From: an uncultured Planctomycetia bacterium
Lineage (GTDB): Bacteria > Omnitrophota > Gorgyraeia > 2-02-FULL-51-18
DNA length: 64,000 bases
Direction: 5' to 3'
Assembly (NCBI GenBank): GCA_964373505.1
Contig: CAYJVC010000001.1
Coordinates: 41,630-105,629, forward strand
Within the stretch, counting starts at the first letter, position 1. Each line of letters begins with the position of its first letter. Positions 2,956 to 46,442 of the stretch are shown one piece after another. The position numbers and the translations under genes are program-made. Below the pieces are notes generated by a model. That model did no database searches and was not told the DNA's origin. It saw only the letters and a program-made list of their open reading frames with translations.

Positions 2956-2984
2956 TTGACAGCAATTCACCGTGCCTATATAAT
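2956..2984 (+). promoter_or_regulatory. Consensus sigma70-type promoter TTGACA-N17-TATAAT upstream of lysS leader element
   Basis: ttgaca(2956-2961), 17-nt spacer, tataat(2979-2984) in an AT-rich 100-nt gap after lnt. Confidence 0.5.
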
Positions 2985-3024
2985 AAAGCAAACTATTTTA
3001 TAAGTTTACGGAAATAAATAGGTT

Positions 3025-3140
3025 ATGACCCCACCCCCTCATTTTGAGGCGGACTGTTTTTGGGGTTTTTTGAGTCGTATTTGATTCGCCTCGACGCGCT
3101 TTGCGCCTCGGCGCGTAGCGCAAATGAGGGGGTGGGGTGA
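3025..3140 (+). repeat. Structured intergenic element copy E1: arms CCCCACCCCCTCATTT / AAATGAGGGGGTGGGG, right arm contains lysS GTG start
   Basis: 16-bp perfect inverted repeat (3029-3044 vs 3122-3137) flanking ~77 nt of GC hairpins. ATGACCCC at left, GGGGTGA at right. Confidence 0.8.
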
Positions 3141-7945: not shown

Positions 7946-8058
7946 CCCCATCCCCTCCTTTTTTATTTAGAGAATTGATGAATCCGCCCGCGGCGGGTTC
8001 ATGCGCCGTTTCCCGGATGATGAGTATTGAAGCGGCGCAAAAGGAGGGGATGGGGTGA
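7942..8058 (+). repeat. Structured intergenic element copy E2: arms CCCCATCCCCTCCTTTT / AAAAGGAGGGGATGGGG, bridges mcsA stop (ATGA) and mcsB GTG start (GTGA)
   Basis: 17-bp perfect inverted repeat (7946-7962 vs 8039-8055). Inner hairpins GCGCCG..CGGCGC, ATGAA..TTCAT. An element-spanning 38-codon ORF runs from ATG 7942 to TGA 8056. Confidence 0.8.
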
Positions 8059-9113
8059 GCGTCAAAGTGGACTCCTTATTGAAGCAGACCTGCGAGTGGT
8101 TGAGGGGCACCGGGCCCAATTCCGAGATCGTCCTGAGCTCCCGCGTGCGGTTGGCAAGGAATCTCGAGAAGGCATCGTTTCCCCATTGGGCCACGAAAAA
8201 GCAGGAGAAGGAAACACTGGAGCTTCTGGATGCGGCGCTGCGGCACGTGGACCTCATGAAAGGGAGCTTGTTCGTCCGCATGACGGAGATCGATGACGTG
8301 GACAAGCAGTTCCTCTTGGAAAGGCATTTGGTGAGCCGTGAGCACATGATGCACGCGGAATCCAAGGCGGTCGTGATAGGTGATAAGGAAGTGATCAGCA
8401 TCATGATCAATGAAGAGGACCATCTGAGGATCCAGGTGATCCAGTCCGGGTTTAACCTGCAGGAATGTTGGCGCATCGCCAACCGCCTCGACGACGGGCT
8501 TTTAAAAAGAGTGAAGTTCGCGTTCCATCCGGAATGGGGTTATTTGACGACATGCCCGACCAACACGGGAACGGGCCTTCGGGCGTCTGTGATGCTGCAC
8601 CTGCCGGCGCTCGTGATGACCAAACAGATCTCGCGCGTGGTCCAGGCGATTTCGAAACTCGGCATGACGGCGCGCGGCCTTTACGGGGAGGGCACGGAGG
8701 CCGAAGGAAATTTCTTCCAGATATCCAACCAGGTCACGATGGGATCGCCTGAGGAGGACACGATCGATAACTTGGAGCGCATTATCCGCCAGGTGATCGG
8801 GCATGAGGAAAACGCGCGCAAGACCCTGATGAAACAGAATCGCGAGGTGCTTCAGGACAAGATCTGCCGCGCGAACGGCACTTTGAAAGCCGCGCACATT
8901 ATCAGCACCAAAGAGATGATGGGTCTGCTCTCTATGGTGAGACTTGGCGTGGACATGGGGGTGATCGCCGACATCGACCGCCGGGCTGTCAACGAGCTTT
9001 TTATTTTGACGCAACCGGCGCATTTGCAAAAGATCGAGGGGAAAATGCTCAGCTCCACGCAGCGCGACGTTAAAAGAGCAAATTTGATCCGTCGGCGTCT
9101 TGAGGGACGGTAG
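8055..9113 (+). CDS. mcsB: Protein arginine kinase McsB (ATP:guanido phosphotransferase)
   Basis: 352 aa. N-term ...GPNSEIVLSSRVRLARNLEKASFP, phosphagen-kinase catalytic CPTNTGTGLRASVMLHLPAL. Confidence 0.85.
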   Translation: MSVKVDSLLKQTCEWLRGTGPNSEIVLSSRVRLARNLEKASFPHWATKKQEKETLELLDAALRHVDLMKGSLFVRMTEIDDVDKQFLLERHLVSREHMMHAESKAVVIGDKEVISIMINEEDHLRIQVIQSGFNLQECWRIANRLDDGLLKRVKFAFHPEWGYLTTCPTNTGTGLRASVMLHLPALVMTKQISRVVQAISKLGMTARGLYGEGTEAEGNFFQISNQVTMGSPEEDTIDNLERIIRQVIGHEENARKTLMKQNREVLQDKICRANGTLKAAHIISTKEMMGLLSMVRLGVDMGVIADIDRRAVNELFILTQPAHLQKIEGKMLSSTQRDVKRANLIRRRLEGR

Positions 9114-9139
9114 TCCTCCTTCGCGAAGGCTTCGGAGGA
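9114..9139 (+). other. GC hairpin with alternative foldings immediately after mcsB stop (possible terminator/stabiliser)
   Basis: TCCTCC-TTCGCGAAGG-CTTCGGAGGA. CCTTCGCGAAGG is a perfect palindrome, and CGAAGgCTTCG is an alternative stem sharing CGAAG. Confidence 0.4.
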
Positions 9140-9146
9140 TAAAGTT

Positions 9147-9180
9147 GTTTTGAATTCATTTTTGTAATGTTATGATAAAG
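9147..9180 (+). promoter_or_regulatory. Possible promoter with extended -10 (TGtTATGAT) upstream of clpC
   Basis: AT-rich 60 nt between hairpin and clpC ATG. tgttatgat with weak -35 candidates (tttgaa/ttttga). Confidence 0.25.
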
Positions 9181-9201
9181 AACATCCAGGGGCCTTAAGT
9201 C

Positions 9202-11682
9202 ATGTTCAACAAATTTACGGAACGGGCCAGGAAAGTGATCCTGCTGGCCAAGCAGGAGGCCAAGCGTTTCAATCACGATTACATCGGCACCGAGCACATT
9301 TTGCTCGGGCTTTTACGCGAGGGTGAGGGTGTCGCGGCCGCGGTGCTTCAAAGCCTCGGCATGAATCTCAACAATATCCGGCTCGAAGTGGAAAAATTAG
9401 TACAGTTGGGGCCCGCCACCGTGGTGTCGGGTGACCTGCCTTTCACGCCGAAGGCCAAGAAGGTGATGGAGATCGCAATGGAGGAGGCCCGAAACCTCGG
9501 CCACAATTATATCGGCACTGAGCATTTGTTGCTGGGGCTCATTCGTGAAGGCGAAGGAGTCGCGAGCCAGGTTTTCATGAACATGGGCCTTGACCTTGAA
9601 AAGGTGCGGGAAGAAGTGATCAAGCTTTTGGGTTCCACGACCCCCGGTTCGCAATACGGCCCCGGGCCCGCTCAAGGGCCTACGCCTTCAGGGCCTCCTT
9701 CTTCCTCTAAGACTAAAACACCGGCGCTGGATGCGTTTGGACGCGACCTGACACGGCTTGCGCGCGATGGGAAATTAGATCCTGTGATCGGCCGTGACGA
9801 GGAGATCGACCGCGTGATGCAAACACTCTCGCGCCGCAGGAAAAATAACCCCGTGCTTCTCGGCGAGGCGGGTGTGGGAAAGTCCGCGATCGTCGAGGGC
9901 TTGGCGCAGAAGATCGTGAGCGGCGACGTGCCGGAAATCTTGAAAAATAAACGGCTCATCACTCTGGACCTGGCGCTCATGGTAGCCGGGACGAAGTACC
10001 GCGGGCAGTTCGAGGAACGCATCAAGGCCGTGATGGATGAGATCAAGCGCTCGGAAAATATCATCATGTTCGTGGATGAACTCCACACGCTCGTCGGCGC
10101 GGGCGGCGCGGAAGGCGCGATCGACGCCGCGAATATTCTGAAGCCCGCGCTGGCAAGGGGCGAGATCCAGTGCATCGGCGCGACGACATTCGACGAATAC
10201 CGCAAGTACATTGAAAAGGACACCGCGCTTGAGCGGAGGTTCCAGACGATCATGGTGGATCCGCCGTCGGTCGAGGAGACGATCCTCATCCTGAGAGGGC
10301 TTCGGGACAAGTACGAGGCGCACCACAAGGTAAAGATTACGGATATCGCGCTTGAGGCGGCCGCCAAGTTTTCGGACCGCTACATTGCTGGCCGATTTCT
10401 GCCGGACAAAGCGATCGACGTGATCGATGAGGCCGGCGCTTACGCGCGTCTTTCGACCCACACCACGCCTCAGGATGTAAAGGAGCTTGAGAAAAAACTC
10501 GAGCTCTTAAGGCGGGAGAAAGAAGACACGATCAAGGAGCAGGATTTCGAGAAAGCCGCGGCCTTGAGGGACCAGGAGCGCGAGATACGGCGGCAGCTGG
10601 ACAAGACCAAAAAGGAATGGATGGAGTCGCGATCGAAGATAGAGCTTGAGATAGGCGAGGAGGATATCGCTCGGGTCATCGCGAAGATCACAGGAATTCC
10701 GATCTCAAGGCTCGAGGAAAAAGAAACCTCGCGCTTGTTGCGTATGGAAGAGGAGATCAAGAAGCATGTGATCGGCCAGGATGAGGCGATCGCCGCGATT
10801 TCCCACGCGGTCCGCCGTTCGCGCGCGGGGCTCAAAGATCCCCGCCGGCCGATCGGTTCGTTCATTTTCCTGGGGCCCACCGGCGTCGGCAAGACGCTTT
10901 TGGCCAAGGCGCTCGCAGAGTTCATGTTCAACGATGAGAGCGCGCTCATCTCGTTCGATATGTCGGAATACATGGAGAAGTTCAACGTCTCGCGGCTCGT
11001 GGGCGCGCCGCCCGGCTACGTGGGCTACGAAGAGGGCGGCCAGTTGACCGAGAAAGTAAGGCGTCGTCCGTACTGCATTGTGCTTTTGGATGAGATCGAA
11101 AAAGCGCACCCGGACGTGTTCAACATGCTGCTTCAGGTGCTGGAAGAAGGTCGCTTGACGGACTCGCTGGGCCGAAAGGTCGATTTCCGGAACACGGTGC
11201 TGATCATGACGTCCAACATTGGCGCGGAACTTCTGAAGAAACAGGGCAGCATCGGTTTTAAAGCGCAAGAGCAGTCCACCGACTACAAGGAAATGAAAAC
11301 GCGTCTCTTGGAAGAGACCAAGAAGGTCTTCAAACCTGAGTTCATCAACCGCGTGGACGATATCATCGTCTTTCAGAAACTCACCAAAGAGGACCTCGAC
11401 AAGATCATCGATATTGAGGTTGAAAATTTGAGAAAGAGACTCGGTGAGCGGGGCATTGAGATCCAACTCGATCAGAAGGCCAAAGATTTTCTGATCGCCC
11501 GAGGTTTTGACCTGATGTACGGAGCGCGCCCGCTGAAGCGCACGATCCAGCGTTACTTGGAGGATCCGCTCGCCGAAGAGATCATTTCAAAGAAGATCCG
11601 CACGAATGAAATGGTTCAGGTCACGGTCAAAGACGACGACCACCTCGTTTTTGAGCAGAGCGCGAAGATTTCAACATCCTAA
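9202..11682 (+). CDS. clpC: ATP-dependent Clp protease ATP-binding subunit ClpC (two Clp_N repeats, two AAA+ modules, UVR linker)
   Basis: 826 aa. Clp_N repeats, Walker A GEAGVGKS and GPTGVGKT, middle-domain UVR motif. Confidence 0.9.
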
Positions 11683-21559: not shown

Positions 21560-21628
21560 CCCCGCCCCCTGATCGTAACGGTCGCGAAGCGATCGGTCGC
21601 CATGGCGACCGATCAGGGGGTGGGGTGA
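21556..21628 (+). repeat. Structured intergenic element copy E3: arms CCCCGCCCCCTGATCG / CGATCAGGGGGTGGGG (one G-U wobble), between holB stop (GTGA) and metG GTG start
   Basis: Arms 21560-21575 vs 21610-21625. Inner perfect 24-bp palindrome GATCGGTCGCCATGGCGACCGATC shares CGATC with right arm. Element length 69 nt keeps left GTG in frame with metG. Confidence 0.8.
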
Positions 21629-26199: not shown

Positions 26200-27113
26200 C
26201 CCTCACGCTTAAAGAGACGGGGGAGTTCGGGTTTATCGACCGCATCCGAAAAATGCTTCCGTGCGGGACAGGCGTGGAGCGGGGCATCGGGGACGATGCC
26301 GCCGTCCTCAGAATAGGAAATAAAAAGGTACTTTTTACGACGGACATGATCCTCGAGGACAGGCATTTTGTTTTGGGTGAAGCATCCGGGTTCGAGATTG
26401 GCTGGAAAGCGCTCAGCGTTAATTTAAGCGATATCGCAGCAATGGGAGGCGTGCCGACGCATGCAGTGGTGGCGCTCGGAATGCCGGCAAGGTTGCCGCT
26501 CCGGTTCGCCGTTGATATCACCAAGGGGATCTGTGCGCTTGCCCGCCGTTTTCGCGTGAACGTTGTGGGCGGGGACACCAACGCCTCGGAAAAGCTTATC
26601 GTGTCGGTGGCGCTTCTCGGTGAAGCCCCGCACGGCCTTGTCACGACGCGATCCGGTGCGAGGCCCGGCGATATCGTTTTTGTGAGCGGCTTTTTGGGGG
26701 GCTCGGCCGCCTCACGGAAGCACCTTCGCTTTATTCCTAGGTTACGCGAGGCTGGTTTTTTAACCGCTCATTTTAATGTGCACGCGATGATGGATATTTC
26801 GGACGGCCTCGCATCGGACATCCACCGGCTCTGCGAACAAAGCGGGACCGGCGTCTGTTTGTCCGAAGAAGCAATACCTAGACAGGCGACAGTAACCCTC
26901 AAACAAGCGTTAACGGACGGTGAGGACTTTGAGCTTCTCTTTACGCTTTCTGCCAAAGACGCTGCGAGACTTGTCCTTTTCAGACCAAAGCGGTCCTTGA
27001 CGCCTTTTCATGAGGTGGGAAAGATCATGCCGAAGCCCTATGGGATCCGCCTCGTCACCGCCGACGGCGCTTCGCGGCCGCTGAAACCCGCAGGTTTCGA
27101 TCATTACCGATGA
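26196..27113 (+). CDS. thiL: Thiamine-monophosphate kinase
   Basis: AIR-synthase-related fold. GEFGFIDRIR, GDDAAVL, TTDMILEDRHF motifs. Confidence 0.85.
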   Translation: MTLTLKETGEFGFIDRIRKMLPCGTGVERGIGDDAAVLRIGNKKVLFTTDMILEDRHFVLGEASGFEIGWKALSVNLSDIAAMGGVPTHAVVALGMPARLPLRFAVDITKGICALARRFRVNVVGGDTNASEKLIVSVALLGEAPHGLVTTRSGARPGDIVFVSGFLGGSAASRKHLRFIPRLREAGFLTAHFNVHAMMDISDGLASDIHRLCEQSGTGVCLSEEAIPRQATVTLKQALTDGEDFELLFTLSAKDAARLVLFRPKRSLTPFHEVGKIMPKPYGIRLVTADGASRPLKPAGFDHYR

Positions 27114-27571
27114 ACTCGAAGCGACACAGGGAGTGGCTGAGCAGATCGGCGGCCGCGACAAAGAGGATCGGGAAAGTTATTAGTGGTTTATTGAAGAAAG
27201 GAGACGTGGTGGCGCTGTTCGGAGAGCTAGGCGCCGGAAAAACAACCCTTGTGAAAGGAATGGCCAAAGGACTCGGCGTCAAGCATGAGTCCCAGGTAGC
27301 GAGCCCAACCTATACCCTGATCCATGAATACCAGGGACGGTGCAGGCTCTTTCATATGGATTGGTATCGGCTGGACTCGCTGAACGGAGCCGATAGAGAA
27401 CTGGCCGAAGAGCATTTTGGTGCGCAGGGGATCACACTGATCGAATGGGCGGACCGCGGCCAAAGTATTCTACCTGAACAACACTTACGTATTGACATCG
27501 AACACAAAGGCCCGCGCAAGCGGCGTATCCGCCTGCATGCGGTAGGCCATACCCGCGATCTTTCCAAATGA
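27110..27571 (+). CDS. tsaE: tRNA t6A37 biosynthesis protein TsaE (YjeE ATPase)
   Basis: GDVVALFGELGAGKTT, SPTYTLIHEY motifs. Confidence 0.85.
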   Translation: MNSKRHREWLSRSAAATKRIGKVISGLLKKGDVVALFGELGAGKTTLVKGMAKGLGVKHESQVASPTYTLIHEYQGRCRLFHMDWYRLDSLNGADRELAEEHFGAQGITLIEWADRGQSILPEQHLRIDIEHKGPRKRRIRLHAVGHTRDLSK

Positions 27572-28197
27572 AAATTTTGGCTTATGATACTTCAAGCGAT
27601 GTGTTGAGTGCTGCGCTCTTTGACGGTCCGAAAAGACTTGCGCAGTCGGGCACGCCGCTTTTTACAAGGCATTCGGACGGCCTTGTCCCGGCGATAGAAA
27701 AACTGCTAAAAAAAGCGCATTGCAACCTAAACGCGCTCGAGTGCATCGCGGTGGGGCTCGGTCCGGGGTCCTTCACCGGCCTGAGAGTCGGTATAACCAC
27801 CGCCAAGTTTTTGTCCTATGCGACAGGTGCCAAGCTCGTCGGCGTCCCGAGCCTCGAGGTCATCGCTTGTCAGGCGAAGTCCTCCGGTAAGAACGTTGCG
27901 GTGATGCGGGATGCAAAAAAGGGGAAGGTCTATGCGGCCATCTACCGGATAGACCCCGCGGGCGTGCCGCGAACCGTTTCTAAACCGCAACTGACCCAGG
28001 AAAAAGATTTCCTGGAACGGTTACGAACGCCGTATGTTCTGATTGAGAAGGATGTGTTTCCAAATGCTACGGACCTGGCCCGTATCGCCAGGGGATTGAT
28101 ACGGCAGAAAAAATATGAAGACCCAAGGAGGCTTGTGCCGCTGTACCTTCATCCTCGGGATTGCAACGTGACGCAACAAAAAACGCATGGCCGGTAA
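27568..28197 (+). CDS. tsaB: tRNA t6A37 biosynthesis protein TsaB (YeaZ, inactive Kae1 paralog)
   Basis: MKILAYDTSSD..., GPGSFTGLRVGI motifs, 209 aa. Confidence 0.8.
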   Translation: MKILAYDTSSDVLSAALFDGPKRLAQSGTPLFTRHSDGLVPAIEKLLKKAHCNLNALECIAVGLGPGSFTGLRVGITTAKFLSYATGAKLVGVPSLEVIACQAKSSGKNVAVMRDAKKGKVYAAIYRIDPAGVPRTVSKPQLTQEKDFLERLRTPYVLIEKDVFPNATDLARIARGLIRQKKYEDPRRLVPLYLHPRDCNVTQQKTHGR

Positions 28198-29335
28198 GCG
28201 CGTGAATTCCCCCCTTTGTACGGCGTGGGTCGAAGTCGACCTTGGCGCGCTACGGAATAATTTGAGACTTATCCGGAGGCGCATTCGGAAGGGCCGGACG
28301 CAAATACTCGCGGTGGTGAAAGCGGACGCCTATGGGCACGGAATGAAGTCCGTCGCAAAGGCGCTGGCCCGGGAGGGTGTGGGTTTTTTTGGTGTCGCCA
28401 ATATTGACGAGGCCATGGAGCTGCGGAGCGTCTGCCCCAGGCAAAAAATCCTCGTGCTCGGGAGCTTTCACGCGAGTCAACTGCTTTTTTTCATTCGCCA
28501 CCGCATCCTGCCGACTGTTTCTTCGGTCGGGGACATCCGGACCTTGGCGCGCACGTTAAGATCTCGAACGTCCCCGTTTCCGGTCCACGTGAAGATCGAC
28601 ACGGGCATGGGCCGGTTGGGGGTTTGGCACGAGGAGATCGAGCCTTTTTTTAAAATTTTAAAGCAGAATCCGAACGTGGGGGTCGAAGGTATTTACACGC
28701 ATTTTTCAAGCGCCGACAAAAAGGATAAAAGATTCACCCGGAAACAGCTCACGGACTTCGGCCGCGCGGTCCAAAAAATAAAGACGCTTGGCTTCCACCC
28801 CCGGTATATTCATGCAGCCAACAGCATGGGCCTCCTCCGCTTTACGAACGCGCATCTTAATCTTGTGAGGCCCGGGATCGTTTTGTATGGTGTTCAGCCC
28901 GATCGGCGCCTGGCGAAACTAGCGGGACTTAAACCCGTTATGTCGCTTAAAACACGGGTGTGCTTCCTTAAGGATGTGAAAAAGGGCTCGAGCATCAGTT
29001 ACGGCGCTTCGTATGTCACGCCCCGCGCGACGCGGATCGCGACGCTTCCCATCGGTTACAGCCATGGTTACCGTGTCGGATTTTCCAACAAGGCGTTTGT
29101 GCTGATCCGTGGCCGGAGGTATCCGGTGGTGGGGCGGGTGACGATGGACCAGACACTTGTGAACGTGGGCCCCGGGGCACGCGTCCGTCGTTGGGAGACG
29201 GTGACCCTTATCGGGCGTGATAACGGAGCGGTTATTTCAGCCGAAGATCTTGCGACGTTGGCGGGAAGCATCCCCTACGAAGTTGTTTGTTCCATCCACA
29301 GCCGCATCCCGCGGCTCTACAAGGGTGTTCGCTAG
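28187..29335 (+). CDS. alr: Alanine racemase
   Basis: PLP-Lys motif VVKADAYGHG, C-terminal beta domain. Confidence 0.9.
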   Translation: MAGKRVNSPLCTAWVEVDLGALRNNLRLIRRRIRKGRTQILAVVKADAYGHGMKSVAKALAREGVGFFGVANIDEAMELRSVCPRQKILVLGSFHASQLLFFIRHRILPTVSSVGDIRTLARTLRSRTSPFPVHVKIDTGMGRLGVWHEEIEPFFKILKQNPNVGVEGIYTHFSSADKKDKRFTRKQLTDFGRAVQKIKTLGFHPRYIHAANSMGLLRFTNAHLNLVRPGIVLYGVQPDRRLAKLAGLKPVMSLKTRVCFLKDVKKGSSISYGASYVTPRATRIATLPIGYSHGYRVGFSNKAFVLIRGRRYPVVGRVTMDQTLVNVGPGARVRRWETVTLIGRDNGAVISAEDLATLAGSIPYEVVCSIHSRIPRLYKGVR

Positions 29336-29405
29336 CCCCATCCCCTGTTTCCTGCGATCGCAAAGCGATCGGTCCACAGAGCGGAGGAAACAGGGGATGG
29401 GGTGG
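29333..29405 (+). repeat. Structured intergenic element copy E4: arms CCCCATCCCCTGTTTCC / GGAAACAGGGGATGGGG, followed by T-rich tract (terminator-like) after alr
   Basis: 17-bp perfect inverted repeat (29336-29352 vs 29384-29400). Inner TGCGATCGCA palindrome. Shares 12-mer AAGCGATCGGTC with E3. GTG in right arm not followed by a plausible gene. Confidence 0.8.
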
Positions 29406-29414
29406 TTCTTTTCT

Positions 29415-29443
29415 TTGGACAGCACTTTATTTCATGTTATAAT
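29415..29443 (+). promoter_or_regulatory. Near-consensus sigma70-type promoter TTGGAC-N17-TATAAT for the ilvB operon, in an AT-rich 130-nt leader
   Basis: ttggac(29415-29420), 17 nt, tataat(29438-29443). 11-bp palindrome ATTTACTAAAT at 29450-29460 near predicted TSS. T8 run at ~29492-29500. Confidence 0.5.
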
Positions 29444-29539
29444 AACAAGATTTACTAAATTCACCTGATATTAACCAGGCGAATAAGTGCTTTTTTTTGT
29501 CATTTAATCTTTTAACAGTAAAGGACTTAGGAAACTTCG

Positions 29540-31216
29540 ATGGCGAAAATGTCCGGCGCTCAGGCGGTTGTGGAAGCGTTCTCAAAAGAAGGGGTAGAGT
29601 ACGTGTTCGGCCTGCCCGGTGGCGCCTGTCTGCCTCTTTTTGATGCGCTGTACGACGCCAAGTTCAAGGTGATCCTTGTGCGCCATGAACAGGGCGCCGT
29701 GCATATGGCCGAAGGGTATGCGCGCTCAACGGGCCGGCCCGGCGTCGTGGTGGTGACTTCGGGCCCCGGCGCGACGAACACCGTGACCGGCATTGCCGAC
29801 GCTTACATGGATTCAATACCGCTGGTGGTGGTCACGGGCCAGGTGAAGACATTTTTGATCGGCAATGACGCGTTTCAGGAAGCGGATGTGACCGGCATTA
29901 CGCGCCCGGTCACGAAACATAATTACCTCGTAAAAGACGCCGCGGACCTGCCACGCGTGTTGAAAGAAGCGTTTTATATCGCCACGCACGGTCGTCCGGG
30001 GCCGGTGTTGATCGATTTTCCGTCGGATGTGAGCTTGACAGAGATCGATTTTGAGTACCCGTCGAGCGTGAATGTCCGTGGATTCAAGCCGGTGCTTTTG
30101 GGCCATCCCGGTCAGATCCGGAAGGCGTTCGATCTCATCATAAAGTCAAAACGCCCCGTGGTTTACACAGGGGGCGGCGTGATCGTCGCGAACGCTTCGA
30201 AGGAACTCATCGAGTTCGTGCAAAAGACGAATGCTCCTTGCACGAACACGCTCATGGGACTCGGCGGCGTGCCGGGGACGCACCCGCTTTTCATGGGGAT
30301 GCTCGGCATGCACGGCACCGTTTACGCGAATAAGGCCGTGAACGAATGCGATCTTTTGATCGCGGTGGGCGCGCGCTTTGACGACCGGGTGACGGGGGAC
30401 CTTACGAAGTTCGCTCCGAAGGCCAAGATCATCCACATCGACGTCGACCCCTCGGCGATCGCCAAGAACGTGAAGGTCGATGTGCCGATCGTAGGCGATG
30501 TGAAGCAGGTGCTTCAGGAACTCAACAAGATGGTGGGCCCGGTCGATACGAAGGAATGGCTTACGCAGATCGCCGCCTGGAGAAAGGAAAGCCCGCTTCG
30601 TTACGGCAATGACGGCGAGGACGTCCGCCCGCAGTATGCAATCCAGAGGCTTTGTGATATTTTGGGGACTGATGCGATCGTTTCGACGGATGTGGGCCAG
30701 CACCAGATGTGGGCCGCCCAGTATTACGTGTTGAGCGGACCGAACCAATTCCTGACGAGCGGGGGGCTAGGCACGATGGGCTACGGTTTTCCGGCGGCCA
30801 TCGGCGCGCAGTTCGCATTCCCGAAGAAGACGGTGCTCTGTATCACCGGCGACGGATCGTTCCAGATGAATATCCAGGAGATGGCCACCGCGGTGTACAA
30901 CAAGTTGCCCGTAAAGATCGCGATCATCAATAACAATTACCTGGGCATGGTGCGGCAGTGGCAGGAGATCTTTTACAAGCACCGTTATTCCAGTTCCGAG
31001 ATGAGCGGGAATCCTGATTTTGTGAAACTCGCCGAGGCTTATGGCGCCAAAGGCATTCGTGCGACAAAAATGAAAGAGGTGGACGACGCCATTCGATTCG
31101 CGCAGTCGGTGAAGGATGTGCCCTGCGTGATCGATTTTATTGTAAAGGAAGAGGAGAACGTTTACCCGATGATCCCGTCGGGCAAGTCACTCGATCAGCT
31201 GATGGATATGGCCTGA
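29540..31216 (+). CDS. ilvB: Acetolactate synthase large (catalytic) subunit, ThDP-dependent
   Basis: 558 aa. ThDP-binding GDGSFQMNIQEMATA..NN motif, FAD-binding middle domain. Confidence 0.95.
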   Translation: MAKMSGAQAVVEAFSKEGVEYVFGLPGGACLPLFDALYDAKFKVILVRHEQGAVHMAEGYARSTGRPGVVVVTSGPGATNTVTGIADAYMDSIPLVVVTGQVKTFLIGNDAFQEADVTGITRPVTKHNYLVKDAADLPRVLKEAFYIATHGRPGPVLIDFPSDVSLTEIDFEYPSSVNVRGFKPVLLGHPGQIRKAFDLIIKSKRPVVYTGGGVIVANASKELIEFVQKTNAPCTNTLMGLGGVPGTHPLFMGMLGMHGTVYANKAVNECDLLIAVGARFDDRVTGDLTKFAPKAKIIHIDVDPSAIAKNVKVDVPIVGDVKQVLQELNKMVGPVDTKEWLTQIAAWRKESPLRYGNDGEDVRPQYAIQRLCDILGTDAIVSTDVGQHQMWAAQYYVLSGPNQFLTSGGLGTMGYGFPAAIGAQFAFPKKTVLCITGDGSFQMNIQEMATAVYNKLPVKIAIINNNYLGMVRQWQEIFYKHRYSSSEMSGNPDFVKLAEAYGAKGIRATKMKEVDDAIRFAQSVKDVPCVIDFIVKEEENVYPMIPSGKSLDQLMDMA

Positions 31217-31354
31217 TGAATAAATCCGAAGCACGAAATCCGAAATCCGAAACACAAAATTCAAAACAAAGGTTTCGGTCATTCGAATTTAGGGTTTCGA
31301 ATTTGTTTCGTGCTTCGTGCTTCGAATTTAGGATTTAGCACGAAAGGAGGATTT
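31217..31354 (+). repeat. AT-rich repeat-laden spacer between ilvB and ilvN: tandem CGAAATC x3, TTCGAATTT x3, TTCGAATTTAGG x2, forming a ~35-nt imperfect inverted repeat
   Basis: Left half AATCCGAAGCACGAAATCCGAAATCCGAAACAC is near-reverse-complement of right half GGTTTCGAATTTGTTTCGTGCTTCGTGCTTCGAATT. GC ~35% vs ~58% flanks. Confidence 0.6.
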
Positions 31355-31867
31355 TTGGCGATACATGACGTTACCCCCATTACTGAGCATATATTATCGG
31401 TGCTTGTGGAGAACCGGGCCGGGGTGCTGTCTCATGTTGTCGGGCTTTTCTCGGCGCGCGGATTCAACATCGATTCACTCGCGGTTGGTGAAACCGAAGA
31501 CCCGACGATGTCACGCATTACGCTCGTGACGCAGTGCGATCTGAAGACCTTTGAGCAGGTCAAGAAGCAGCTCAACAAGCTGATCGACACGATCAAGGTG
31601 CAGGACCTCACCGAGGAGGGCTATGTGGACCGTGAGCTCATGATGGTCAAGCTCGCGAACTCTGAAGAGACCCGGCGCGCGCTCGAGGGCCCCTTGAAAC
31701 AGTACCGTGTGCAGGTGGTCGCACAGAACGAGAAGCTTGTGATCTTGGAGAGCACGGAGTCGCGGGAAAACTCCAAGAAGATATTCGAGATTTTCAGGAA
31801 ATTGGGGGTTAAGGAAGTGGCGCAGACCGGGGTGGTCGCGCTTTCAAAAAAGACCCCGAAGGAATAA
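31355..31867 (+). CDS. ilvN: Acetolactate synthase small (regulatory, ACT-domain) subunit. Probable TTG start 8 nt after GGAGG
   Basis: [37 protein letters not shown] motif. ORF-caller start 31310 lies inside the repeat spacer. SD aaaggagg at 31343-31350. Confidence 0.8.
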
Positions 31868-31881
31868 GGGAAAGGCTGGAT

Positions 31882-32868
31882 ATGGTAAAGATCTATTACG
31901 ACAATGATGCGGACTTGTCATTGATCCGGAGTAAGGCAGTAGGGATGATCGGGTACGGCATTCAGGGGCGCGGTCAGGCGCTCAACTTAAGGGACAGCGG
32001 TGTCCGGGTGATCGTGTCCCAAAGACCCGGCGGGCCGAACCACGCGCAAGCCGTGAAGGATGGTTTCGACCCCGTGGAGGCCTCGGAGCTTGCCGGAAAG
32101 TCCGACGTGATCATCGTCCTGGCGCAGGATCCGCTGCAGGCCGAGATCTACAAAAAATCGGTCGCGCCGCATCTGACAAAAGGCAAGGCACTGGCGTTTT
32201 CGCACGGATTCAATATCCATTTCAAGCAGATCGTCCCGCCGAAGTTCGTGGACGTTTTCATGGTGGCCCCGAAGGGGCCGGGCAGCCTTGTGCGGCGCCT
32301 TTACGAAGAGGGTAAAGGCGTTCCGTGCCTCGTGGCCATCTACCAGGACGCTACGAAAACATGTAAGGAGCTCGCGCTTTCCTACGCGAAGGCGCTCGGC
32401 GGCACGCGCGCCGGCGTGATCGAAACCACGTTTAAAGAGGAGACCGAAACGGATCTTTTTGGCGAGCAGTCGGTGTTGTGCGGCGGCACGAGCGCTCTCA
32501 TCAAGGCGGGTTTTGAGACGCTCGTGAAGGCCGGTTACCAGCCGGAGGTCGCGTATTTCGAATGTTTGCACGAGCTGAAACTTATCACGGACATGATATA
32601 CGCCACGGGCATTCAGGGCATGAGAAAACGAGTGTCGGACACGGCCGAGTACGGCGACTTGACGCGCGGCCCGCGCATCGTGAACCAGAAAACGCGCGCC
32701 CAAATGCAGAAGATCCTCAAGGACATCCAATCGGGGAAATTCGCGAAGGAGTTTTTGGCGGACTATCACAAGGGCAAAAAGAATTTTGAGAAATTGCGCC
32801 ATGCGGATGACGACCATCCCATTGAAAAAGTAGGAGCGAAGCTCCGCGGAATGATGCGCTGGTTATAA
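31882..32868 (+). CDS. ilvC: Ketol-acid reductoisomerase (class I, short form)
   Basis: Rossmann [17 protein letters not shown], catalytic C-terminal knotted domain, 328 aa. Confidence 0.95.
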
Positions 32869-32874
32869 GATCAT

Positions 32875-32983
32875 TGTGACGTTCACGGGTGACGCGAGGC
32901 GGGGCGCCCCATTCGCGCGCAGCGAACCTCAGTTACGCGAGCAAGAATGGGGCTGCCGAGCGGCAGGACCCGTGAACGTCACA
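32875..32983 (+). repeat. Nested palindromic intergenic element (family 2) between ilvC and leuA: outer 16-bp perfect arms TGTGACGTTCACGGGT / ACCCGTGAACGTCACA enclosing three GC hairpins
   Basis: Arms 32875-32890 vs 32968-32983. Inner GGGGCGCCCC (32901-32910), GCCCCATTC..GAATGGGGC (32906-32914/32945-32953), CTGCCGagCGGCAG (32953-32966). Confidence 0.75.
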
Positions 32984-42081: not shown

Positions 42082-42133
42082 CGGCATTCGCGGGTCCTGC
42101 CGCTGCGGCAGGTCGCCGTCACCCGCGAATGCC
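42078..42133 (+). repeat. Nested palindromic intergenic element (family 2) between xerC and waaA: outer arms GGCATTCGCGGGT / ACCCGCGAATGCC, inner hairpin CCTGCCGCtGCGGCAGG, alternative pairing GTGACGGC/GCCGTCAC
   Basis: Perfect 13-bp outer arms (42083-42095 vs 42121-42133). Perfect 8-bp inner stem (42096-42112). Left arm shares TTCRCGGGT core with the ilvC-leuA element. Confidence 0.75.
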
Positions 42134-46359: not shown

Positions 46360-46442
46360 CCCCATCCTCTCCTTTGAAATTTTCAATTTTAGCGCGGTGC
46401 GCTGAGGCGACTTTGTCGCCTCGAAAGGAGGGGATGGGGTGA
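46356..46442 (+). repeat. Structured intergenic element copy E5: arms CCCCATCCTCTCCTTTG / CGAAAGGAGGGGATGGGG (one U-G wobble), bridges acyltransferase stop (ATGA) and GT4-GT9 GTG start (GTGA)
   Basis: Arms 46360-46376 vs 46422-46439. Inner perfect hairpins AGCGCggtGCGCT and GAGGCGACtttGTCGCCTC. An element-spanning 28-codon ORF runs from ATG 46356 to TGA 46440. Confidence 0.8.

Follow-up and report, generated by a model that had tools for sequence, protein, structure and literature searches.

The 64,000-nucleotide (nt) stretch of DNA analysed here, which is called the window, lies on contig CAYJVC010000001.1 of an uncultured Planctomycetia bacterium of the Omnitrophota lineage (GenBank assembly GCA_964373505.1, positions 41,630 to 105,629). 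Within it, the alanine racemase gene alr is followed by the genes ilvB, ilvN, ilvC and leuA, and a 67-nt hairpin, E4, separates alr from the promoter of this ilvBNC-leuA operon. An initial annotation of the same DNA described E4 as an intrinsic terminator that closes the alr unit. The observations presented below suggest that E4 is probably a stray copy of an element resembling a MITE (a miniature inverted-repeat transposable element), which came to rest on the alr stop codon beside an older promoter, and that its terminator look is largely an accident of the place where it landed. The features of the junction, in window coordinates, are the following.

28187-29335, + strand: alr open reading frame (ORF), 382 aa; Pfam domains PF01168 and PF00842 in its homologues.
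29336-29402, + strand: E4, a 67-nt copy of a palindromic mobile-element family, assigned by pairing, fold, homology and absence from the orthologous site in the relatives L001-L005 and L078.
29403-29405, + strand: TGG, the right copy of a 3-bp duplication, with a middle-base mismatch to the left copy TAG; assigned from the flanks of the family and from the removal of E4 and TGG, which restores the relatives' arrangement of stop codon, T-rich run and -35 box.
29406-29414, + strand: T-rich run TTCTTTTCT upstream of the -35 box, ancestral and outside the element; present in relatives without E4.
29415-29443, + strand: predicted sigma-70-type promoter of ilvBNC-leuA, with -35 box TTGGAC, 17-nt spacer and extended -10 box TGTTATAAT; assigned by consensus scan and conservation.
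29445-29475, + strand: conserved block at and after the predicted transcription start, ACAAGATTTACTAAAT and TGATATTAAC (29466-29475); assigned by sequence conservation.
29476-29539, + strand: rest of the ilvB leader, with a T8 run (29491-29498) and the ribosome-binding region; assigned by alignment, the ilvB ATG being at 29540.

All the sequence features listed in the initial annotation are present at the coordinates given there or close to them. The TAG at 29333-29335, with which alr ends, doubles as the left copy of the 3-bp duplication around E4. The stem of the hairpin starts 0 nt after this stop codon, and its two arms, CCCCATCCCCTGTTTCC (29336-29352) and GGAAACAGGGGATGGGG (29386-29402), complement each other exactly. 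The complete outer stem comprises 18 bp (29336-29353 with 29385-29402), or 24 nt at 92% when extended, and its G+C-rich base, CCCC/GGGG, ends at 29402, directly upstream of the U-tract. The outer stem encloses two inner hairpins, one at 29355-29371 (CGATCGC-AAA-GCGATCG) and a degenerate one at 29372-29386, in which four of six pairs are left. A folding energy of -46 to -50 kcal/mol is predicted for the RNA of the region, with z-scores between -6.0 and -8.7; among 200 shuffled sequences there is none as stable. The fold can be extended through GCUA/UGGU pairs and then sits directly on UCUUUUCUUU. In the tail that follows the stem, TGGTTCTTTTCTTTG, 10 of 15 nt are T. An identical E4 (100%) is found in two more assemblies of this strain, and DNA of the organism is present in the samples ERR3478686 and ERR4904391.

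The junction was compared with that of six Omnitrophota-like genomes (L001, L002, L003, L004, L005 and L078), the Alr proteins of which are 57-73% identical. The best named Alr matches are Candidatus Omnitrophica/Omnitrophota metagenome-assembled genomes (MAGs). The gene order tsaE-tsaB-alr-ilvB-ilvN-ilvC-leuA-aroE is kept in all six relatives, and the position of the alr stop codon is kept as well (K-G-V/I-R-stop). In none of the six is a copy of the E4 element present between alr and ilvB, and in none does a hairpin directly follow the alr stop codon. Five relatives have retained the T-rich run together with the -35 box, the extended -10 box and the TTTACTAAA block, and in five of the six the spacer leads from the alr stop codon to the T-rich run and then to the same promoter, without an intervening hairpin. 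The spacer reads TAA-CTTTTCCTTTGGACAGAATTTTTTTCGTGCTATAATACAAAACTTACTAATTTCACCTGATATTAACC in L001 and TGA-ACTCTTTCCTTTGACC...GTGCTATAATACAAGTTTTACTAAAAT in L002, and the T-rich runs found upstream of the -35 box in hairpin-free relatives are CTTTTCCTTTGGACA, CTCTTTCCTTTGACC and GTTTTCTTTGGACA. When E4 and TGG are deleted from the window, the sequence becomes TAG-TTCTTTTCTTTGGACA, to be compared with TAA-CTTTTCCTTTGGACA in the closest relative.

Six of the seven genomes have conserved the -35 box, the TGnTAnAAT box and the ACAAnnTTTACTAAA block; among the relatives, L001, L002, L003, L005 and L078 have the promoter and L004 differs. The invariant columns of the alignment are TTTG..C, TG.TATAAT, ACAA..TTACT and TATT. 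L078 has acquired an extra gene and another hairpin element upstream, yet TTTGATC-N-TGATACAAT-ACAAAGTTTGCTAAAAT is kept before its ilvB. The extra gene is a 451-aa ORF between alr and ilvB (L078 11118-12473) without a Pfam match.

As the T-rich run lies upstream of the -35 box in relatives that have no hairpin, it must predate E4. From this alignment, the promoter, its T-rich flank and the TTTACTAAA block are all judged to be older than E4, the T-rich run being ancestral promoter-flanking sequence, and E4 itself is a lineage-specific insertion into a gap of about 11 nt between the alr stop codon and the promoter. The proposal that the T-rich tract forms part of a terminator design is thus not borne out. 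Since the relatives have no terminator at this place, termination between alr and ilvB is not an ancestral requirement.

The promoter itself fares well as first described. It is close to the consensus, stands 96 nt before ilvB and scores 11/12 with an additional extended -10 TG: TTGGAC occupies 29415-29420, TG 29435-29436 and TATAAT 29438-29443, and the site can be parsed as TTGGAC-N17-TATAAT or as TGGACA-N16. The distance from the right arm of E4 to TTGGAC is 12 nt, and not ten as had been stated. Only two sites in 60 kb score 11/12 or better, the other one being a perfect TTGACA-N17-TATAAT before a lysS-like gene. The hexamers stand at a spacing within 16-18 nt, are accompanied by TG and are kept at the same place in the relatives; judged by this phylogenetic footprint, the predicted promoter is real.

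The sequence just after the -10 box is conserved as the block ACAAnnTTTACTAAA, and a second conserved piece, (T)AATATTRAC, follows about 10 nt further on. The block is likeliest to be an operator for a regulator or to reflect a constraint on the initial transcribed region. It includes, inside its ACAAGATTTACTAAAT part, the 11-bp palindrome over the predicted transcription start to which the initial annotation had drawn attention (ATTTACTAAAT, 29450-29460). A search for further copies of this palindrome, which had been suggested as a check, finds no other occurrence in the window with up to one mismatch, and six matches against 7.9 expected with two mismatches in 64 kb; with no excess of copies in 64 kb, its use as a regulon motif was rejected. 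The T8 run in the leader is present at 29491-29498, but about 45 nt of the leader, the T8 included, fall into an alignment gap in L001, L003 and L005, and both the run and the greater length of the leader are specific to the window.

Known regulatory RNAs were looked for in the same region. The whole window has no Rfam match at the gathering threshold, and the region of E4 and the leader gives only noise (microRNA and snoRNA models) at E values up to 10; a known ribozyme, T-box, riboswitch or leader RNA for ilvB was therefore rejected. RNAalifold finds 0 conserved pairs in the leader. The fold of the window leader, a hairpin followed by U8, is weak and not significant (z = -1.2). An attenuator was rejected too, being unsupported: the hairpin is weak, it lies in a window-specific insertion and no structure is conserved. 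The GTG at the right end of E4 opens an 18-codon ORF (VVLFFGQHFISCYNNKIY, 29402-29458), which crosses the ilvB promoter and ends within the TTTACTAAA block; this ORF lacks conservation and is probably meaningless.

E4 is one of 29 distinct copies of its family, five of which are in the window and 24 elsewhere. Apart from those in the window and in L004, the copies were collected by pattern scans of genome and metagenome collections. These scans required TG after the right end and left the left flank free; copies found without the TG requirement, in the window and in L004, agree on the flanking duplication. The window copies, recognised by their shared termini, are:

E1, 3029-3137
E2, 7946-8055
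E3, 21560-21625
E4, 29336-29402
E5, 46360-46439

The termini of the family are CCCCRYCCCCT/AGGGGRYGGGG, those of the five window copies being CCCCRYCC(C/T)CT...AGGGGRYGGGG. Copies occur in Omnitrophica MAGs (PCVX01000042, MHFI01000056), in several MAGs labelled as uncultured Planctomycetia or Planctomycetales and in JGI metagenome contigs. The flanking triplets are TGA/TGA in 22 of the 29 copies and TGG/TGG in four, and a 3-bp duplication is present in 26. Because the triplet co-varies on both sides, the target duplication is considered genuine. The outer stem is paired in 97.4% of the cells of the alignment, compared with 50-60% in slid controls, and beyond the 11 conserved terminal bases it contains 65 double changes versus 20.6 in shuffles, a number that none of 500 shuffles reaches. 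Inside the outer stem, the copies have two to three short hairpins of unrelated sequence. Their triloops are mostly closed by C-G (CGCAG in 8 cases, CGAAG in 7, CAAAG in 6 and CTTCG in 6). Triloops of the C-GCA-G and C-GAA-G type and their complements are typical of unusually stable hairpins of single-stranded DNA, which hints that a single-stranded DNA form may be relevant to the mobility of the family.

E4 can be aligned end to end with E3 and with the copies from L041, L009 and L004. The 12-mer AAGCGATCGGTC, found at 29363-29374 in E4 and at 21587-21598 in E3, is shared because the two copies are homologous over their full length; the alignment, which includes copies from other genomes, supports the common descent of E4 and E3 that was argued at the outset from the 12-mer. 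Insertion sites differ between genomes: E3 is missing from the holB-metG junction in L003-L005, and L078 has a copy of a different subfamily there. No autonomous partner or transposase was found, as the window and L001-L056 contain no matching pair of termini 130-5000 bp apart with proper flanks. In its terminal repeats, target duplication, size, copy number and pattern of presence and absence, the family behaves like a mobile element of the MITE kind. No description of it was found in the library of literature that was searched.

Many hits of the collection scans were set aside as unrelated G+C-rich hairpins, among them a 64-nt palindrome of Anaerolineae H33_435 and sequences from Streptomyces and Myxococcus. 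The palindrome of Anaerolineae bacterium H33_435 is 62-64 nt long and near-perfect, TCA|CCCCACCCCCT...AGGGGGTGGGG|TGA, and occurs on many contigs of one MAG (L010, L018, L023, L027, L029, L033, L042, L050 and L054). Its terminal decamer is the same as that of the Omnitrophota family, and its flanks and interior are different. A tandem duplicate of a family copy at L055 4227-4480 is followed by a run of N and is most likely a scaffolding artefact.

The position of most copies follows a common rule. In nearly all of them an ATG, GTG or TTG is completed by the base in front of the left triplet, and a left TGA often serves to stop the gene upstream; at the other end, the last G of the element joins the right triplet to form a GTG, with which a long ORF begins. 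These border codons place the copies on start codons or on start/stop overlaps of 4 nt. Read from the original start codon, which is retained, 27 of the 29 copies have an open frame, whereas the other two frames are open in 18 and 15; with shuffled interiors the original frame is open in 15.0 of 29 copies on average, and none of 2000 shuffles reaches 27. The length is divisible by three in 21 of 29 copies (binomial p = 2e-5) and in 17 of 25 cluster representatives (p = 4e-4). Such copies would give the protein an in-frame N-terminal extension, M-TP(P/S)P...GGG-V. In the five copies with a length of 2 modulo 3, a mini-ORF ends exactly on the right TGA and overlaps the new GTG.

The metG gene called in L078 begins with the original start codon and includes the copy. 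A 72-nt copy stands in frame inside aroE of L004 (16901-16972) and adds 25 codons, so that AroE has 312 aa compared with 287-289 aa in the relatives. In the region of E1, at 2956-3140, a perfect consensus promoter, TTGACA-N17-TATAAT (2956-2984), precedes the lysS-like gene and E1 lies in the 5' untranslated region; what starts at the original ATG (3025) is now an ORF of 19 codons. As this ORF stops inside E1, the lysS-like gene must start at the GTG at 3137, which the element supplies. The idea that E1, E2, E3 and E5 occlude start codons thus describes the family incompletely, since the original start codon is retained and read through, either in frame or as part of a coupled mini-ORF.

E4 departs from this rule. 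It has an in-frame stop codon before it and non-coding DNA after it and is not translated, it is 67 nt long compared with 66 nt in its nearest relatives, and its flanks, TAG and TGG, are mismatched. It is the sole copy with a non-coding T-rich tail (one of the 19 copies analysed for this, and one of the 29 distinct copies), in agreement with what had been noticed in the window. The comparison identifies E4 as an untranslated and slightly decayed outlier with apparent signs of relaxed constraint. Since E4 alone departs from the usual context, termination, if it takes place, would be a property of this one site, and the suggestion that the family is used in two modes has to be given up.

Other hairpins fill spacers nearby. 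A different inverted repeat (31221-31330), with 25-nt arms rich in CGAAATCCGAAATCCGAAA-type pentamers, occupies the 93-nt spacer between ilvB and ilvN, a spacer of only 0-3 nt in four relatives. A second family of hairpin elements, ...GGGTGACGCGAGGCG...GGGGCGCCCC...GGCAGGACCC..., fills the ilvC-leuA spacer of the window (32875-32983) and is found also in the ilvB leader of L004 (11134-11390) and twice in L078 (4773-5078 and 12473-12821, one of these just upstream of the ilvB promoter); 42083-42133 of the window is a possible further copy. At 9113-9202 there is another junction of stop codon, hairpin and promoter, in which TAG is followed by TCCTCCTTCGCGAAGGCTTCGGAGGA and then by TTGAAT-N17-TGTTATGAT before the next gene. 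It is like the E4 site, without an element of the family.

These observations show the insertion, its family membership and flanks and the conservation of the promoter, and by combining them it is possible to propose how the junction arose. A copy of the element inserted on the alr stop codon, into the gap of about 11 nt in front of an existing sigma-70 promoter. In transcripts arriving from alr, E4 would fold into the -46 to -50 kcal/mol hairpin, which stands by chance beside the inherited T-rich run and might serve as a weak, leaky terminator-like signal, as a hairpin that protects the 3' end, or as both. Such leaky termination or 3'-end protection is plausible, if unproven. The ilv genes would be expressed mainly from their own promoter, as in the hairpin-free relatives, and selection for termination need not be invoked.

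A terminator effect is disfavoured by the lack of any distance (0 nt) between stop codon and stem. In E. coli, the terminating ribosome was found to repress almost completely a terminator that lay a few bp behind a gene (PMC4824070). E4 does not stand at the end of a conserved transcription unit, nor at a distance from the stop codon that would leave a terminator room to fold. It is a 67-nt branched structure with a 31-nt interior, and not a compact hairpin with a short stem and a loop of 3-8 nt, and a terminator scan of 27000-32000 does not call it. Canonical terminator-like sites across 60 kb are at background level (30 versus 25.6 expected, 30 versus 28.7 and 31 versus 28.6). The tail, UGGUUCUUUUCUUU, has G-G at +2/+3, the first three nucleotides after the stem being UGG. 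Its TransTermHP-style score, which marks a moderate likeness to a terminator, is -3.2 after the stem, which is within the top 4.9% of window positions, and -4.06 after the extended stem, within the top 1.3%.

Some observations weigh against this proposal. The outer stem of E4 is perfect over its 18 bp despite the decayed interior, which could mean selection and not recency. The extended stem sits directly on UCUUUUCUUU in a workable terminator geometry, and termination could exceed the efficiency assumed here. E4 is identical in three independent assemblies, which offer no population variation for judging constraint.

The perfect outer stem could also be explained if E4 were a domesticated mobile hairpin, with selection for efficient intrinsic termination at the end of the alr unit and for insulation of the ilvBNC-leuA promoter. 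The strong, G+C-rich base of the stem and the T-rich tail behind it (10 of 15 nt), a location between stop codon and promoter, the second hairpin-then-promoter junction at 9113-9202 and the existence of terminator-like repeat elements (SPRITE, listed in PMC3184786) all agree with this explanation. It is nevertheless unlikely: the T-rich run is ancestral promoter-flanking sequence, the relatives have no terminator at alr/ilvB, UGG occupies the first three positions after the stem, the branched 67-nt hairpin is non-canonical in form and escapes the scan, its contact with the stop codon is the arrangement that ribosomes repress in E. coli (PMC4824070), and one copy out of 29 does not make a family mode.

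It is also improbable that E4 is selfish DNA without measurable effect, fully read through, which persists as the 11-nt gap is among the few places where an insertion is harmless. In favour of this explanation are the dense packing of the genome, in which genes overlap by 4 nt, the unrelated hairpins inserted into nearby spacers (ilvB-ilvN and ilvC-leuA in the window, and upstream of the ilvB promoter in L078) and the decay seen in E4 itself. A hairpin of -46 to -50 kcal/mol followed by a U-rich stretch is, however, unlikely to be inert for RNA polymerase or 3' exonucleases, given what is generally known of intrinsic termination and of REP-type stabilisers.

A bolder proposal combines co-option with a new class of element. 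The host would have recruited this copy as an operon insulator or terminator before the ilv promoter, and the family would be an undescribed class of translation-compatible mobile hairpin, which targets TGR at start codons, rebuilds a GTG start codon together with a G-rich ribosome-binding arm, is maintained either in frame or as a coupled mini-cistron, and has inner hairpins with C-GNA-G triloops. Taken as a whole, this proposal is very doubtful. That E4 acts on the DNA itself, as a cruciform-prone G-rich palindrome that alters the strength of the ilvB promoter or its coupling to upstream transcription, is most improbable, for although 12 nt separate its right arm from the -35 box and E4 occupies -48 to -115, the usual zone of upstream promoter elements and activators, the corresponding region of the relatives is alr coding sequence with no sign of an upstream site, and nothing in the family suggests protein binding.

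The reading of E4 as a stray MITE-like copy beside an older promoter separates the locus into an old part, the conserved promoter with its T-rich flank, and a new part, the inserted hairpin. An accidental combination of hairpin and T-rich run is thereby kept from being annotated as a designed terminator. The compact, co-directional genomes of a poorly studied phylum appear to carry a mobile element that survives on start codons and stays translatable. Should E4 and copies like it change read-through, mobile hairpins would be able to create new boundaries of transcription units in gene arrays that are themselves ancestral. For the transcription signals of Omnitrophota, the ilvB promoter and its TTTACTAAA block, being conserved, provide a handle.

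The family can be compared with several known kinds of bacterial repeats. It is like bacterial MITEs in having terminal inverted repeats, a short target duplication, a length of 66-110 nt, no transposase, many dispersed copies and variable presence at orthologous sites. It differs from them in that its interiors are highly diverse and yet keep two to three local hairpins, in the covariation of the inner half of the outer stem and in the almost exclusive location on start codons. Correia elements have a TA duplication and REP elements have none. The E4 family differs from Correia and REP elements in its termini and its 3-bp TGR duplication, and this clear duplication places it outside the REP/REPIN elements mobilised by RAYT, which are marked by a conserved GTAG/CTAC-type motif and an associated RAYT gene. 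The mycobacterial interspersed repetitive units (MIRU), which are intercistronic repeats, reportedly contain small ORFs, the start and stop codons of which overlap the flanking genes (Supply et al. 1997). The five copies with a length of 2 modulo 3 behave alike, and MIRU would be the closest functional analogy for these coupled copies, although MIRU are tandem direct repeats, and not hairpins with target duplications, and E4 differs in its position after a stop codon.

Two of the remaining comparisons, with SPRITE and with Rickettsia palindromic elements (RPE), are by description. SPRITE is a repeat that resembles or acts as a terminator (PMC3184786). Like E4, it is a dispersed short repeat that forms an RNA hairpin after a gene and is terminator-like; its terminator-like motif is, however, within the repeat, whereas here the T-rich run belongs to the promoter region of the host and follows one copy out of 29. 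RPE are repeats tolerated inside reading frames (PMC3184786). The L004 copy inside aroE and the approximately 20 copies read through from the original start codon are similar to them. The differences are that RPE are from another phylum, that the E4 family prefers the start codon or the start/stop overlap to internal sites, and that E4 itself is untranslated. REP2 of Neisseria lies directly upstream of genes and supplies them with a start codon and a ribosome-binding site (PMC3184786); REP2 also carries a promoter, whereas E4 is placed after a stop codon. The E4 family thus combines traits known from separate repeats, being terminator-like, start-codon-supplying and tolerated in reading frames, with a TGR duplication that rebuilds the start codon. 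For such an element, the fate of E4 is nothing unusual: the copy has settled in a spacer where it does no harm.

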